A stretch of 5,230 nucleotides of DNA, taken from the IMG/VR virus record IMGVR_UViG_2548877011_000013; one strand, 5' to 3'. This DNA is from a virus (Duplodnaviria; Heunggongvirae; Uroviricota; Caudoviricetes). Shown here piece after piece: positions 1 through 5,230 of this stretch. Position numbers and translations under genes: made by a program. The notes under the pieces are model-generated. The model was not told the origin of the DNA. It saw nothing but the letters and a program-made list of their open reading frames with translations, and searched no databases. Numbering within the stretch: the first letter of the stretch is position 1; each line of letters begins with the position of its first letter.

Positions 1-192
1 ATGCACAAAGCATCTCCTGTTGAGTTAAGAACGAGCATTGAGATGGCACATAGCCTTGCTCAAATTGGAGTCAGGTTTGTGCCAATACCAGTAGAAACAG
101 ACGAAGAATTTCATACGTTAGCCGCATCCCTTTCACAAAAGCTGGAAATGATGGTGGCGAAAGCAGAAGCAGATGAGAGAGACCAGGTATGA
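1..192 (+). CDS. Small lambdoid early-region protein, lambda orf63-like (DUF1382-type); 63 aa
   Basis: ORF of exactly 63 codons starting at base 1 (window begins on the ATG). The sequence MHKASPVELRTSIEMAHSLAQIG...AKAEADER matches my recollection of the lambda orf63 family. Its stop TGA (190-192) overlaps the next ATG (189-191). Homology is from memory, not searched. Confidence 0.55.
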   Translation: MHKASPVELRTSIEMAHSLAQIGVRFVPIPVETDEEFHTLAASLSQKLEMMVAKAEADERDQV

Positions 193-272
193 CAACCACT
201 GAATGCATTTTTCTGGCAGCGGGCTTCATATTCTGTGTGCTTATGCTTGCCGACATGGGACTTGTTCAATGA
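189..272 (+). CDS. Micro-ORF encoding a 27-aa hydrophobic peptide (MTTTECIFLAAGFIFCVLMLADMGLVQ), putative single-TM small protein
   Basis: The ATG at 189 overlaps the upstream stop (gtATGA) and the stop at 270-272 overlaps the ATG at 269 (caATGA), so it is coupled at both ends. There is a weak purine-rich stretch (GAGAGAG, 175-181) upstream. The core is an uninterrupted hydrophobic run of about 19 residues. Below the 60-aa cutoff of the ORF track. Confidence 0.3.
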   Translation: MTTTECIFLAAGFIFCVLMLADMGLVQ

Positions 273-484
273 CACCTCAGCAAGAAAACGCCCTTCGCAG
301 TATTGCCCGTCAGGCTAATTCTGAAATCAAAAAAGCCAGACAGCAGTTTCCGGATAAAAACGTCAATGACATTTGCCGTAGCGTACTAAAGAAGCACCGC
401 GAAACGGTAACGCTGATGGGATTCACACCGACTCATTTAAGCCTGGTGATCGGCATGTTAAACGGCGTCTTTAAGGAACGGTGA
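269..484 (+). CDS. Small lambdoid early-region protein, lambda orf61-like; 71 aa from ATG 269 (alternative in-frame start at 203 gives 93 aa)
   Basis: Same reading frame as track ORF 203..484. I prefer the start at 269 because of the ATGA overlap with the upstream micro-ORF and because the 22 residues added by the 203 start are Cys-rich with no Shine-Dalgarno sequence. Position after the orf63-like gene matches lambda gene order. Family assignment is from memory. Confidence 0.5.
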   Translation: MTPQQENALRSIARQANSEIKKARQQFPDKNVNDICRSVLKKHRETVTLMGFTPTHLSLVIGMLNGVFKER

Positions 485-505
485 ACATGAAAAGCAAAAT
501 CATCA

Positions 506-530
506 GGGAGCTACAGGCTCCTTTTTTATT
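506..530 (+). terminator. Candidate intrinsic terminator: 5-bp GC-rich stem GGAGC(507-511)/GCTCC(517-521), 5-nt loop, followed by TTTTTTATT
   Basis: Read directly from the sequence: gGGAGCtacagGCTCCttttttatt in the 98-nt intergenic gap between 484 and 583. The stem is short, so this would be a weak, probably antitermination-sensitive terminator. Confidence 0.35.
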
Positions 531-582
531 GTTCGCATTCATCCTCAAGCGTATTAACCAACAATTCAGGGATTAATGGAAG

Positions 583-804
583 ATGGCAGACATCATTGAT
601 TCAGCATCAGAAATTGAAGAATTACAGCGCAACACAGCAATAAAAATGCGCCGCCTGAACCACCAGGCTATATCTGCCACTCATTGTTGTGAGTGTGGCG
701 ATCCGATAGATGAACGAAGACGCCTGGCCGTTCAGGGTTGTCGGACTTGTGCAAGTTGCCAGGAGGATCTGGAGCTTATCAGTAAACAGAGAGGTTCGAA
801 GTGA
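583..804 (+). CDS. TraR/DksA-family C4 zinc-finger protein (lambda Orf73-like RNA-polymerase secondary-channel binder); 73 aa
   Basis: Motif C35-x2-C38-x17-C56-x2-C59 (HCCECGDP...GCRTCASC) is the canonical TraR/DksA zinc finger. Length (73 aa) and position just upstream of ea22 match lambda orf73. The stop TGA (802-804) overlaps the GTG start of the next gene. Confidence 0.8.
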   Translation: MADIIDSASEIEELQRNTAIKMRRLNHQAISATHCCECGDPIDERRRLAVQGCRTCASCQEDLELISKQRGSK

Positions 805-1571
805 GCGAAATTAATTATCAGGCACTGCGTGAAAAGGCAGAGAAAGCAACTAAAGGAAGCTACATCGTAGGGCATACATCTGTTAACCAGCACGGCAATT
901 TAACAGGAGTTTTTGTTTGCCAAAAATGGAAAGGAGAACCCGGTGGCGTGATTGCGGAATGTCATGTTAACTGCCTGATTGAATCAGATGCTCAGGCTTA
1001 TGCAAACGCTGAATTCATAGCAGAGGCTAACCCGGCTACCGTGCTGGCACTGCTGGATGAACAGGAAAGAAACCAGCAATACATCAAACGCCGCGACCAG
1101 GAGAACGAGGATATTGCTCTTACGGTAGGGAAGCTGCGTGTTGAGCTGGAAGCAGCAGAGAACAACCTTATTGATAGTGAATGCCATGTTGCTGAACTGG
1201 AAGAAGCGCTACGCGATAAGCAGGCGTTACTTGAAGCCTCAGAAAAGCGCAACGCAAAATTACAAAGCGAGAATGCATACATCCGCAACCGGTACAAAGA
1301 ACTGGACCTATTAATCGGGAAAAACATTCTTGTCATGCAGGCTGCGATTATCGAATGGCAGGCAACTGGCGACGCTAAAAGCGGACTGGCATGGATTTAT
1401 AACACACTGTTTGGCCCAGGCGAATTACCGGACGAATCTGAGAAAGATGCTCAGGCCTACTTTAATCGCAAATATGCACCGATTGACGAAAATCTCATGG
1501 AGCTTCACAAGTGGTTTTGGGAACAAAGTGAAGCCGAGCGCGCCGCTGGCATTCGCATCAAAGGAGAGTGA
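801..1571 (+). CDS. Ead/Ea22-like family protein; 256 aa with a central coiled-coil region
   Basis: GTG start at 801 with GAGAGG 6 nt upstream, overlapping the upstream stop (GTGA). The N-terminus MSEINYQALREKAEKAT and the motif EFIAEANPATVLALLDEQE match the conserved Ead/Ea22 signature as I recall it. The middle region is heptad-like and rich in E/K/R/L/A. Confidence 0.7.
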   Translation: MSEINYQALREKAEKATKGSYIVGHTSVNQHGNLTGVFVCQKWKGEPGGVIAECHVNCLIESDAQAYANAEFIAEANPATVLALLDEQERNQQYIKRRDQENEDIALTVGKLRVELEAAENNLIDSECHVAELEEALRDKQALLEASEKRNAKLQSENAYIRNRYKELDLLIGKNILVMQAAIIEWQATGDAKSGLAWIYNTLFGPGELPDESEKDAQAYFNRKYAPIDENLMELHKWFWEQSEAERAAGIRIKGE

Positions 1572-2338: not shown

Positions 2339-3169
2339 ATGACCACTATTACCAAAGAACGTATTGAATTGTTCATTAAAAATCCGCTTGAAAACGGGCT
2401 TACTCGTGGCGAACAAATGGAACTGGCACGAATTGCACTGGCATCACTGGAACGCGAACTGATTCGCCACGAGCATGCCAAATGGTCTGACTCCACATTT
2501 GGCTGCGTTGGCCCCATTGGTCCACTGAAACACCTCTCAAAAGAGGCTCTGGAAGCCGCAGCCGAACCAGACGATCTCAGCGAGTGGGCTGATATGCATT
2601 TCCTGTTGTGGGATGCACAGCGCCGTGCTGGCATCAGCGATGCTGAAATTACCGCTGCTATGGAAGATAAATTGAAGATCAACATGGAGCGCCAGTGGCC
2701 TGAACCAAAAGATGGTGAGCCTCGCTTGCACATTAAAGAACCCGGCAACTCTCCGGTAATTCCGGATGGTTTATCCACGGTATGCGCTGAGGCTTATCAG
2801 GTTGTAGGAGTTATGGCAGATGCGCTTGGTGTATTCGGTGATGCAGCAGTACAGAAAGTTCTGGATAACCTGTCACAGCAAAAACTTGTTCACAGAGATG
2901 TGCTGCCGTTCTCGCTTCCGGCAACTCCGGATGGTTGGATAAGCTGTAGTGAGCGAATGCCTGAAATGGGAGAGCGACAATGCTATGTGTTAGCAGCTGA
3001 CTTTAAAAACAACTACCCACCAAACATCCCCAACACTCAGGTCGGCGTATATGGCGACTGGTTTAATGATGGCAAGCCCACTTGGGATGACGGTGATGGC
3101 GAAGACCTGTATCTCAAAGAGGTAACCCACTGGATGCAGCTACCAGAACCGCCGCAGGAGGTGAAATGA
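2339..3169 (+). CDS. Two-domain phage protein: N-terminal MazG-like dATP/dGTP pyrophosphohydrolase domain (DUF550-type) plus C-terminal DUF551; 276 aa
   Basis: AAGGA 7 nt upstream of ATG 2339. The N-terminal ~120 aa is all-alpha with acidic clusters (KHLSKEALEAAAEPDDLSEWADMHFLLWDAQRRAGISDAEI) typical of the MazG/HisE-like fold. The C-terminus has DGWISCSERMPE ... VTHWMQLPEPP, which matches the DUF551 signature. Assignment from memory. Confidence 0.65.
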   Translation: MTTITKERIELFIKNPLENGLTRGEQMELARIALASLERELIRHEHAKWSDSTFGCVGPIGPLKHLSKEALEAAAEPDDLSEWADMHFLLWDAQRRAGISDAEITAAMEDKLKINMERQWPEPKDGEPRLHIKEPGNSPVIPDGLSTVCAEAYQVVGVMADALGVFGDAAVQKVLDNLSQQKLVHRDVLPFSLPATPDGWISCSERMPEMGERQCYVLAADFKNNYPPNIPNTQVGVYGDWFNDGKPTWDDGDGEDLYLKEVTHWMQLPEPPQEVK

Positions 3170-3252
3170 TGAATTGGCCTGAAGCATTCACCGCAGTTGG
3201 AGTTGCAATAGCGGTGGCATTTATTCTGTATTCGCTTTTCCGCTGGGGATAA
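3166..3252 (+). CDS. Micro-ORF encoding a 28-aa single-TM peptide (MMNWPEAFTAVGVAIAVAFILYSLFRWG)
   Basis: The ATG at 3166 overlaps the stop of the preceding gene (aaATGA), and the ORF ends 4 nt before the next gene. It has a 19-residue hydrophobic core flanked by Trp and Arg. The preceding GGAGG at 3157-3161 could serve as its Shine-Dalgarno sequence. Below the track cutoff. Confidence 0.35.
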   Translation: MMNWPEAFTAVGVAIAVAFILYSLFRWG

Positions 3253-3910: not shown

Positions 3911-3943
3911 CCTGTTAATGCTCCTGGACGTCTGGGAGGTTTA

Positions 3944-5230
3944 ATGAGTAACGCATCATACCCGACAGGCGTTGAAAACCATGGAGGATCACTCCGTATA
4001 TGGTTTCACTATAATGGCAAACGTGTCAGAGAAAACCTCGGTGTTCCTGACACAGCCAAAAACCGGAAGATCGCTGGTGAACTTCGCACTTCCGTTTGTT
4101 TTGCAATCAGAATGGGGAGTTTCGACTACGCCGCGCAGTTCCCTAATTCCCCTAACCTGAAACACTTTGGTCTGGGAAAAAGAGAGATAACCGTTAAGGC
4201 ACTTTCGGAAAAATGGTTGGACCTTAAGAAAATTGAGATTTGTGCGAATGCACTTAACCGTTACCAGTCAGTAATTAAAAACATGTTACCAATGTTAGGT
4301 GAAAAAAAACTGGTTTCATCCATAACAAAAGAGGATTTACTTTTCGTAAGGAGAGATTTGTTGACCGGTTACCAAAAGCTTTCTAATGGAAAGACTTCTT
4401 CCATAAAAGGGCGCTCAGTGGTCACGGTAAACTACTATATGACAACCATAGCTGGAATGTTTCAATTTGCAACAGATAATGGTTATACCTCAGGAAACCC
4501 ATTTAACGGTCTGGCTCCCTTAAAAAAGTCCAAGGTAAAACCAGATCCTCTCACCCGTGACGAATTTATTCGTTTTATTGAGGCTTGCCGTCATCAACAA
4601 ACAAAAAACCTGTGGATTCTCGCTGTATACACGGGTATTCGTCACGGGGAGTTGGTATCGCTGGCATGGGAAGATATAGACCTTAAAGCAAGGACTATAA
4701 CCATCCGTAGAAATTATACAAAACTTGGCGAATTCACTCCACCAAAAACCGATGCAGGCACCGGAAGGACAATTCATCTGGTTCAACCAGCTATTGATGC
4801 TCTTAAAAGCCAGGCGGAAATGACCATGCTTGGAAAGCAACATTCTGTAGAGGTGAAGCAGAGGGAATATGGGAGAACTGCTGTGCATAAATGCACTTTT
4901 GTTTTTAGTCCTCAGGTAACAAAACAGCAGCAGTTGTCCGGACCTCACTACAAGGTTGACTCCATCAGGGAGTCATGGACAAGTATCTTAAAACGCGCAG
5001 GTCTGAGACACAGAAAATCGTACCAATCCAGGCATACTTATGCATGCTGGTCACTTGCCGCAGGAGCTAATCCTAGTTTTATCGCAAGCCAGATGGGCCA
5101 CACAAACGCACAAATGGTATTCAATGTTTACGGAGCATGGATGAAAGACAACAATCACGAACAGATAGAACTCCTTAACAAAAGACTATCTGAAAGTGTC
5201 CCATGTATGCCCCATAAGAAAGCAGGGTAA
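3944..5230 (+). CDS. int: Tyrosine-type site-specific integrase, lambdoid (Rac IntR / HK620-like) with N-terminal arm-binding domain; 428 aa, complete
   Basis: GGGAGG 4 nt upstream of the ATG. N-terminal arm-type domain (LRIWFHYNGKRVRENLG...FDYAAQFP). Catalytic-core motifs GIRHGEL, LAWEDIDL, SRHTYACW, AGANPSFIASQMGH and NVYGAW, the last carrying the presumed catalytic Tyr. Stop TAA at the window end. Confidence 0.92.
   Translation: MSNASYPTGVENHGGSLRIWFHYNGKRVRENLGVPDTAKNRKIAGELRTSVCFAIRMGSFDYAAQFPNSPNLKHFGLGKREITVKALSEKWLDLKKIEICANALNRYQSVIKNMLPMLGEKKLVSSITKEDLLFVRRDLLTGYQKLSNGKTSSIKGRSVVTVNYYMTTIAGMFQFATDNGYTSGNPFNGLAPLKKSKVKPDPLTRDEFIRFIEACRHQQTKNLWILAVYTGIRHGELVSLAWEDIDLKARTITIRRNYTKLGEFTPPKTDAGTGRTIHLVQPAIDALKSQAEMTMLGKQHSVEVKQREYGRTAVHKCTFVFSPQVTKQQQLSGPHYKVDSIRESWTSILKRAGLRHRKSYQSRHTYACWSLAAGANPSFIASQMGHTNAQMVFNVYGAWMKDNNHEQIELLNKRLSESVPCMPHKKAG

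Follow-up and report, generated by a model that had tools for sequence, protein, structure and literature searches.

Enterobacteria encode a number of small single-pass inner-membrane proteins, among them KdpF (29 residues), MgtR (30 residues), MgtS (31 residues), and AcrZ (49 residues). KdpF has no basic residues, and the small enterobacterial membrane proteins act by binding larger membrane proteins. Here, we describe a candidate phage-encoded small membrane protein, simple and testable, in a 5,230-nucleotide stretch of Caudoviricetes DNA (IMG/VR virus record IMGVR_UViG_2548877011_000013), hereafter called the window. The window covers the early-left (exo-xis) region of a lambdoid phage or prophage. 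The protein would be the product of a 27-codon open reading frame (ORF) at positions 189 to 272, the micro-ORF, which is wedged between a homologue of λ orf63 and a 71-residue gene that is the body of the lambdoid gene known as orf61. The evidence set out below indicates that the micro-ORF is probably a real translated small gene whose peptide matters.

The micro-ORF peptide is like KdpF, AcrZ, MgtS, and MgtR in that it has fewer than 50 residues, consists of essentially one hydrophobic helix, and has no other domain. It is unlike them in that there is no sequence similarity, it is phage-encoded, its ORF overlaps the flanking genes by 4 nucleotides at both ends, and its membrane location is predicted. 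The micro-ORF is, in our view, an uncharacterized addition to a well-known kind, the small single-helix membrane protein. By analogy, we propose that the peptide may also act by binding larger membrane proteins.

A second group for comparison is the type I toxins (Hok, Ibs, ShoB, DinQ, and TisB), which are hydrophobic peptides of 19–50 residues that can damage the inner membrane. Each of these toxins is transcribed from a promoter of its own and is paired with an antisense RNA, and basic residues are usually present. The micro-ORF shares with these toxins a short hydrophobic peptide. The assignment was rejected because no promoter-like (sigma-70-like) site is found on either strand of positions 1–900, because the ORF is embedded in the pL operon, and because the peptide has no lysine or arginine. 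A holin, or another membrane protein of a lysis cassette, was rejected on the early-left exo-xis location and the lack of basic residues.

Phage λ is the reference temperate phage, and current research addresses how the exo-xis block modulates the induction of Shiga toxin (Stx) prophages. Two genes described in this block are the closest to the micro-ORF in position. The first is λ orf61 with its Stx-phage homologues (vb_24B_7c; PHROG 303), which occupy the same DNA. The micro-ORF differs from orf61 in being in another frame and having another product, and the coding signal favors the micro-ORF frame from 189 to 268 and the orf61 frame only from 269. The second is λ orf2313 (31 residues; window 481..576). 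Like the micro-ORF, it is very small, belongs to the conserved orf60a–orf73 block of the pL operon, and is absent from the classic gene list (PMC8614690). The two sequences are unrelated, and orf2313 was identified by ribosome profiling according to the review (PMC8614690), in which the 27-residue ORF does not appear. The interest of the micro-ORF lies in its presence in λ and in its overlap with a gene for which studies have assumed the wrong frame. If it is a gene, then a conserved gene is missing from the gene lists of λ and the Stx phages.

A Hydrophobic Micro-ORF with Overlaps at Both Ends

An initial annotation, made from the DNA letters without database searches, had reported an ORF at 189..272 whose start and stop each overlap a flanking gene. 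The ORF list and the letters at the junctions confirm this. At the 5′ junction, gtATGAca, the ATG of the micro-ORF is at 189–191 and the TGA of ORF 1..192 is at 190–192. At the 3′ junction, caATGAca, the TGA of the micro-ORF is at 270–272, and the overlapping ATG at 269 is codon 23 of ORF 203..484, in frame. No upstream extension of the micro-ORF is possible, since there is an in-frame TGA at 174–176. The double overlap had been judged unlikely by chance, and a rough arithmetic estimate agrees: an ORF that bridges two genes with 4-nucleotide overlaps at both ends has a chance of about 0.6%. Four factors were multiplied: about 1/4 for the A that precedes the upstream TGA, about 0.29 for a run of 26 codons without a stop, 1/3 for a spacer in the right phase, and about 1/4 for the A that follows the downstream ATG.

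The product is extremely hydrophobic. Its grand average of hydropathicity (GRAVY), 1.62, is the highest among the 60 window ORFs of 20–40 residues, and its best 17-residue hydrophobic stretch is equaled by only 4 of 12,306 random stop-free 27-mers drawn from shuffled window sequence. The hydrophobic core runs from C6 to A21 and continues to V26. The Kyte–Doolittle mean is 2.42 over the 21-residue C6–V26 segment and 2.87 for the 15-residue core, CIFLAAGFIFCVLML. Residue D22 lies within the hydrophobic segment, and the uninterrupted core is just 16 residues; in some variants, D22 is replaced by Gly or Asn. The charged residues, E5 and D22, are both acidic. With 27 residues and one hydrophobic segment of bilayer length, the peptide has the size and the segment expected of small (<50 residues) single-transmembrane proteins. 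The composition, together with the hydrophobic character of most amino acid variants, supports the earlier description of the product as essentially one putative transmembrane helix.

Selection in the Micro-ORF Frame

Because conservation alone says little in a block that is so similar everywhere, the kind of differences was examined. Loci were gathered without selecting on the micro-ORF, by means of the orf63 protein, DNA anchors flanking the ORF, an anchor inside the 71-residue gene (for metagenomes), and individual diverged E. coli copies. The sample comprises 334 places, which represent 125 haplotypes and were drawn from phages, IMG/VR, E. coli, and metagenomes.

The phase of the polymorphism changes along the DNA, as follows. 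Up to 188, differences fall at third codon positions of orf63; between 189 and 269, they fall at those of the micro-ORF, and from 269 onward at those of the 71-residue gene. In the segment 192–268, 14 of 30 substitution types are synonymous in the micro-ORF frame, where the observed transition bias predicts 26.6% (p = 0.014). When the count is restricted to recurrent types, that is, those seen in at least two haplotypes, 11 of 17 are synonymous in the micro-ORF frame (p = 0.0011). The same 17 types include 2 that are synonymous in the orf63 frame and 3 in the 203/269 frame. The ratio of nonsynonymous to synonymous rates (dN/dS) of the micro-ORF, estimated from the counts, is about 0.2–0.4, which is about equal to that of the 71-residue gene (18 of 30 types synonymous in the same test).

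The frame itself is well kept. All 27 codons are intact in 123 of the 125 haplotypes, and the peptide is identical in 280 of the 334 places. Variants mostly exchange one hydrophobic residue for another (F8L, A10V, G12V, I14V, F15L, A21V, and V26A). No indels occur between the flanking anchors, the spacing being equal in all 80 loci listed of 120 matching stretches. In the lineage at 90% identity, the micro-ORF has five synonymous and two nonsynonymous changes (A21S and D22G). Taken from the substitutions, these patterns show purifying selection at the protein level in the micro-ORF frame and not in the other sense frames. A comparison of synonymous and nonsynonymous changes in related prophages had been proposed as a check on the micro-ORF, and its outcome is the conserved frame and the synonymous excess just described.

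The predicted RNA fold of positions 160–300 is weaker than that of shuffled controls (z = +1.43), so there is no unusual structure in this segment. Given this and the lack of a promoter-like site, readings of the stretch as an RNA element or a separate transcript were set aside. A regulatory leader peptide, or attenuator upstream ORF, was rejected on three grounds: the fold is weak, no terminator-like site is found within 189–300, and the stop lies directly over the next start.

Junctions and Mosaic Variants

The overlaps are fixed. Positions 189–192 read ATGA in all 125 haplotypes, though the neighboring positions 185 and 188 vary (GGTATGA, GGCATGA, and TGCATGA). Position 189 is invariant despite its four-fold degeneracy in the last orf63 codon (GTA or GCA). 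At the other end, positions 269–271 are ATG in 100 haplotypes and GTG in 24. This A/G change at 269 is synonymous in the micro-ORF, where it gives CAA or CAG, both Gln. A rare TAATGA variant yields a peptide of 26 residues, and its stop still overlaps the downstream start. The Shine–Dalgarno (SD) energy for ATG189 is −5.6 kcal/mol, comparable to those of other genes of the operon (TraR ATG583, −4.9 kcal/mol; ATG2339, −5.8 kcal/mol).

Mosaic variants place the same start behind a different gene. E. coli BL21 and strain PEB21 carry a dam methyltransferase gene in place of orf63, and homology to the window begins exactly at the micro-ORF ATG. There, the dam TGA overlaps the micro-ORF start as ATGA, and a GGGAGG located 4 nucleotides upstream gives −10.3 kcal/mol. 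That is, the micro-ORF start lies over the upstream stop in two contexts with different upstream genes, orf63 and dam. Because homology behind dam begins at the ATG, the unit of exchange appears to be the micro-ORF plus the 71-residue gene, cut at the micro-ORF start. Diverged DUF1382 genes (78–80% identity) are followed, in direct coupling, by Ea22-like or other genes, and no counterpart of the micro-ORF lies between; it follows that the micro-ORF travels with the 71-residue gene and not with orf63. The linkage is constant: the micro-ORF is found only upstream of the 71-residue gene. The BL21 copy is in a defective prophage that adjoins emrE and ren (NZ_CP053601.1 536464–538405), with an intact micro-ORF, 71-residue gene, and TraR homologue; the dam gene upstream is a truncated pseudogene.

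The breakpoint bears on the proposal that the segment is a non-coding spacer, a chance ORF in recently shared DNA whose conservation reflects the recent spread of the module. A block that is 90–99% identical in every source and restricted to Escherichia is what such a spread would leave. A spacer would not be expected, however, to show a three-base phase of polymorphism that switches exactly at 189 and 269, an invariant 189 among varying neighbors, or a mosaic breakpoint exactly at the micro-ORF ATG. Moreover, neither the hydrophobicity nor the double overlap is likely to arise by chance, and no special RNA structure is seen. We consider the spacer reading highly improbable. The view of the initial annotation, a genuine coupled micro-gene, gains from the synonymous excess, the frame intact in nearly all haplotypes, the invariant 5′ ATGA, and the retention of that ATGA behind an unrelated gene.

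The same overlaps could serve a simpler purpose. Translation of 189..272 might only carry ribosomes from orf63 to the 71-residue gene, with the peptide itself being functionless. Overlaps at both ends would suit such a relay, as would the restriction of the micro-ORF to the DNA upstream of the 71-residue gene. In addition, the SD energy for ATG269 is weak, −3.9 kcal/mol, and the variant of the 71-residue gene that lacks the micro-ORF has its own GAGG site (−5.6 kcal/mol). For a relay, though, any open frame would suffice, yet the amino acids are conserved, with most recurrent changes synonymous and the variants conservative. The hydrophobicity of the product is far above chance, and λ keeps an intact micro-ORF though the target of the relay is there a frameshifted remnant. 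A role as a relay only is therefore unlikely, and we prefer a gene whose peptide matters.

Start of the 71-Residue Gene

Many phage records give orf61 a length of 93 residues, starting at ATG203. In the 203 frame, only 3 of the 17 recurrent changes in the segment 192–268 are synonymous, versus 27.7% expected (p = 0.89), and the radical changes include F>S, S>P, G>R, and H>Y. The SD energy of ATG203 is −3.8 kcal/mol, and the SD is badly spaced. ATG203 is invariant, but the same letters spell E5-C6 of the micro-ORF. Upstream, the in-frame stop position 200–202 is TGA, GGA, or AGA depending on the haplotype, and the stop is lost in 33 of 125; the length of the 203-frame ORF is, thus, not conserved. 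The Prokaryotic Genome Annotation Pipeline (PGAP) places the start of the gene at 269. In phages of the SfI/PEC1011 type, the gene starts at this same ATG, after unrelated sequence.

These observations bear on a claim of the initial annotation, namely, that ORF 203..484 really starts at 269. The ATG/GTG alternation, the PGAP start, the mosaic variant, and the near-random substitutions of the 203 frame all support a start of the real gene at 269, and the 203 start of the 93-residue form is not supported. Use of the 203 start had also been named as a finding that would undo the micro-ORF; the substitution pattern and the poor SD do not support that use.

The broader form of this objection is that the stretch belongs to the N terminus of a longer Orf61 (93 residues from ATG203, or 103 residues from ATG173 as in λ), the 27-codon frame being accidental. 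The 93-residue form has been used in published structural modeling as well as in the phage records, the PHROG 303 profile spans its N-terminal residues, and the 203 frame is open in all 125 haplotypes. In one genome, Escherichia sp. E1V33, a coupled ATG with a strong SD is fused into the 203 frame. Whatever else differs in this fused copy still leaves the micro-ORF peptide unchanged or alters it conservatively. The placing of Orf61 residues 1–23 differs between two structure predictors (review PMC8614690). Together with the pattern of substitutions, the variable stop, and the evidence for a start at 269, this leaves the long Orf61 with very little probability as an account of the segment.

The λ orf61 Gene and Its Published Mutants

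In λ, the micro-ORF is complement(30925..31008) in a record with reference-like coordinates. Two changes set λ apart: the upstream stop is lost through T200G, and one additional A within the run 329–334 shifts the frame of the 71-residue gene. As a result, the annotated λ orf61 (30839..31024) is a chimeric ORF of 61 residues, made up of 32 residues read out of frame over the micro-ORF, then 22 that belong to the real gene, and last a frameshift tail of 7 residues. The micro-ORF is intact, and the 71-residue gene downstream is a truncated frameshift remnant. Both T200G and the extra A are carried by laboratory λ and its derivatives (locus L006 of our set, 1074..1259). The extra base is missing from the alignments of several other λ-like phages (ev099, 2G7b, Turner, and others).

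It follows from the shared DNA that the published orf61 deletion and frameshift mutants also destroy the micro-ORF. The annotated λ orf61 holds the entire micro-ORF in another frame, and the 93-residue Stx-phage form holds its codons 6–27. Bloch et al. (2014) made the λ orf61 frameshift mutant with the primer CTTCATATTCTGTGTG*TTATGCTTGCCGACAT (PMC4195576). This primer deletes C240, which is in micro-ORF codon 18 and upstream of the true start of the 71-residue gene. With the mutant plasmid, phage development was delayed after induction by mitomycin C or peroxide (PMC4195576). Dydecka et al. (2018) replaced the annotated ORFs in their orf61 deletions (PMC6213356), and the ORFs deleted contain all (λ) or most (Φ24B) of the micro-ORF. 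In the same study, plasmid-expressed orf60a and orf61 gave insoluble aggregates (PMC6213356).

The orf61 mutant phenotypes are at present assignable to neither frame, and polar effects on downstream genes are possible. It is a tentative idea, to which we give a minor chance, that the pro-lytic orf61 phenotypes of λ are caused by the 27-residue membrane peptide instead of Orf61. A transcriptome of a Φ24B exo-xis deletion shows lower degP, htpX, and heat-shock regulon expression without the region (PMC10789677). Such a decrease would fit a membrane-stressing product; we do not count it as evidence, since the deletion removes many genes, including the TraR homologue.

If the micro-ORF is a gene, orf61 is annotated with the wrong start, and the λ version is a chimera in which an out-of-frame overlap precedes 22 genuine codons and a tail produced by the frameshift. 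A re-reading would then be needed of the phenotypes of the orf61 deletions and frameshift, of the failure to obtain soluble protein from plasmid-expressed orf61, and of the structural models of the 93-residue Orf61.

Proposed Mechanism

We propose the following sequence of events. Ribosomes that end orf63 (or dam) at UGA190–192 would reinitiate at AUG189, aided by the SD-like stretch, and would make the 27-residue peptide. Termination at UGA270–272, atop AUG/GUG269, would hand ribosomes to the 71-residue gene, which has a weak ribosome-binding site of its own. The peptide would most likely insert in the host inner membrane as a single hydrophobic helix and may bind or perturb a host membrane component early after induction or infection. 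A contribution to the pro-lytic phenotype attributed to orf61 in published work is probable. The initial annotation had suggested that such a peptide might act in host killing, superinfection exclusion, or membrane modulation.

Several observations weigh against this proposal. The SfI/PEC1011-type phages have the 71-residue gene without the micro-ORF. In E1V33, it is a 14-nucleotide deletion that fuses the coupled, well-SD-preceded ATG to the frame of the 71-residue gene, and in a few records orf63 either is joined in frame with the micro-ORF or continues past its own stop. The review reports that λ ribosome profiling confirmed orf61 expression and added ORFs of 7 and 31 residues, with no mention of one of 27 residues (PMC8614690). 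In a profile of this kind, micro-ORF footprints would have been credited to the overlapping annotated orf61. Searches of Pfam, NCBIfam, and PHROGs with the peptide gave no significant family match; the best subthreshold matches were NCBIfam MtrF at E = 0.034, below its cut-off, and a PHROGs match at E = 0.68, with none in Pfam. The lack of basic residues means that the membrane orientation of the peptide is not predictable. The selection test rests on 30 substitution types because the module is 90–99% identical and confined to Escherichia. Finally, the antisense frame also has a raised synonymous count, 8 of 16, since ORF 71..256 on that strand shares its third positions with the micro-ORF. 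An antisense gene at 71..256 was rejected, as no promoter-like site is seen on that strand and as polymorphism across 71–188, which the ORF shares with orf63, keeps to the orf63 frame.

The proteins concerned are P0083, P0084, P0093, and P0095 (89 residues) and P0085 (105 residues). The orf63–micro-ORF fusions arise through small junction changes, and one 20-member cluster reads through the orf63 stop into a third frame. These are real variants or sequencing errors.

Distribution and Existing Annotation

Window bases 1–900 have matches at 90–99% identity in 269 phage records and in 3,509 of the 5,426 complete E. coli genomes searched. A 211-base query spanning the micro-ORF (window 120–330) has a match in 3,217 of the same genomes, with roughly 4,400 copies in all, which were sampled here, and with up to five copies per enterohemorrhagic E. 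coli (EHEC) genome. Given this copy number, the peptide would be relevant to the induction of Shiga toxin phages if it is the active product. A tblastn search with the peptide finds 176 phage records, always in this module. The peptide is 100% identical in phages λ, 434, 933W, VT2-Sakai, and Φ24B.

The micro-ORF had been described as unannotated. This holds for the λ, other phage, and RefSeq/PGAP records inspected, in none of which it is a separate feature. It does not hold for several GenBank E. coli genomes, in which the exact peptide is a “hypothetical protein” (e.g., ETI79567.1 and KJW28683.1), or for UniRef, where one name holds the exact peptide (RepID A0A0A2SGE8_ECOLX). The peptide string is absent from the searchable literature, and no mention of a small or membrane ORF from the exo-xis region turned up in keyword searches.

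No spread of the family beyond Escherichia was detectable, and the apparent distant matches are damaged records or likely contamination. Three apparent distant homologues of the 71-residue protein, P0068, P0065, and P0036 (49–70% identity), were rejected: one comes from a record that is missing a base every 60 nucleotides, one from an error-laden read assembly, and one from a sequence with an insertion sequence (IS) element. The first of these defects is seen in GCA_002230785.1 (NLPJ01000020.1), which is without one base per approximately 60 nucleotides (at 21, 81, 141, 201, 260, 321, and so on). This looks like a line-wise file artefact, and the missing bases account for the false distant homologue. 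Among species-representative genomes, most of the 20 matches look like λ DNA contamination and were set aside, only Escherichia sp. E1V33 being informative. Loci L219–L232, from Shewanella, Pseudomonas, Bradyrhizobium, Kitasatospora, Oceanobacillus, and others, are λ-type copies with the laboratory frameshift. Some are on contigs of about 48.4–48.5 kb, and they are most likely λ contamination of sequencing libraries.

Organization of the Window

The micro-ORF lies between bet/exo and xis/int, inside the pL operon. In related records, bet, exo, and orf60a are directly upstream of the module, and the 71-residue gene is named “hypothetical protein” or “ZapA” under PGAP. Coordinates are collected in Table 1.

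Table 1. Features of the window, with positions, strand, and the evidence for each.
Feature	Position	Strand	Evidence
orf63 homologue, DUF1382, 63 residues	1..192	+	ORF list; Pfam DUF1382 E = 3e-31; DUF1382 / λ orf63 homologue in related annotations
SD-like purine-rich stretch GAGAGAGACCAGGT, within the last orf63 codons, ahead of ATG189	175..188	+	Anti-SD duplex energy
Micro-ORF, 27 codons + stop, product MTTTECIFLAAGFIFCVLMLADMGLVQ	189..272	+	ORF list, ATG start
5′ ATGA junction, upstream-gene stop over micro-ORF start	189..192	+	Haplotype alignment
5′ extension of the 93-residue orf61 of many phage annotations, most likely noncoding in that frame	203..268	+	Substitution pattern, poor SD, variable upstream stop
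3′ ATGA/GTGA junction, 71-residue gene start over micro-ORF stop	269..272	+	Haplotype alignment
71-residue gene, real body of lambdoid orf61	269..484	+	PHROG 303 E = 1.5e-35; PGAP start; third-position polymorphism
Small ORF, 31 residues (GTG481; ATG in λ) or 29 residues (ATG487)	481 or 487..576	+	ORF list
TraR/DksA homologue (λ orf73)	583..804	+	Window gene order
Ead/Ea22 gene	801..1571	+	Window gene order
Integrase gene; further small genes and a xis-like gene lie between Ea22 and integrase	3944..5230		

Stop/start overlaps or near-abutments are the rule in this operon. There is a GTGA at orf73/Ea22 (801), and further tight junctions are GTGAtATG after Ea22 (1568–1574) and TAATG at xis-like/int (window 3941–3946). 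The small ORF at 481..576 equals the 31-residue λ orf2313 in length, and inside it is a terminator-like hairpin at 505..523 followed by a T run (AGGGAGCTACAGGCTCCTT TTTTATTGTT).

The window contains a second hydrophobic micro-ORF at 3166..3252 (+), which encodes 28 residues, MMNWPEAFTAVGVAIAVAFILYSLFRWG. Its ATG overlaps the stop of a DUF551-like gene (2339..3169) as ATGA and lies behind GGAGGTG, with an SD energy of −11.6 kcal/mol. The next ORF begins 4 nucleotides past its stop. With tblastn, the second peptide matches 92 phage records at 48–100% identity, in features named DUF551, Ea22-like, EaA, or hypothetical protein. The family of this second peptide shows greater diversity than that of the micro-ORF at 189..272.

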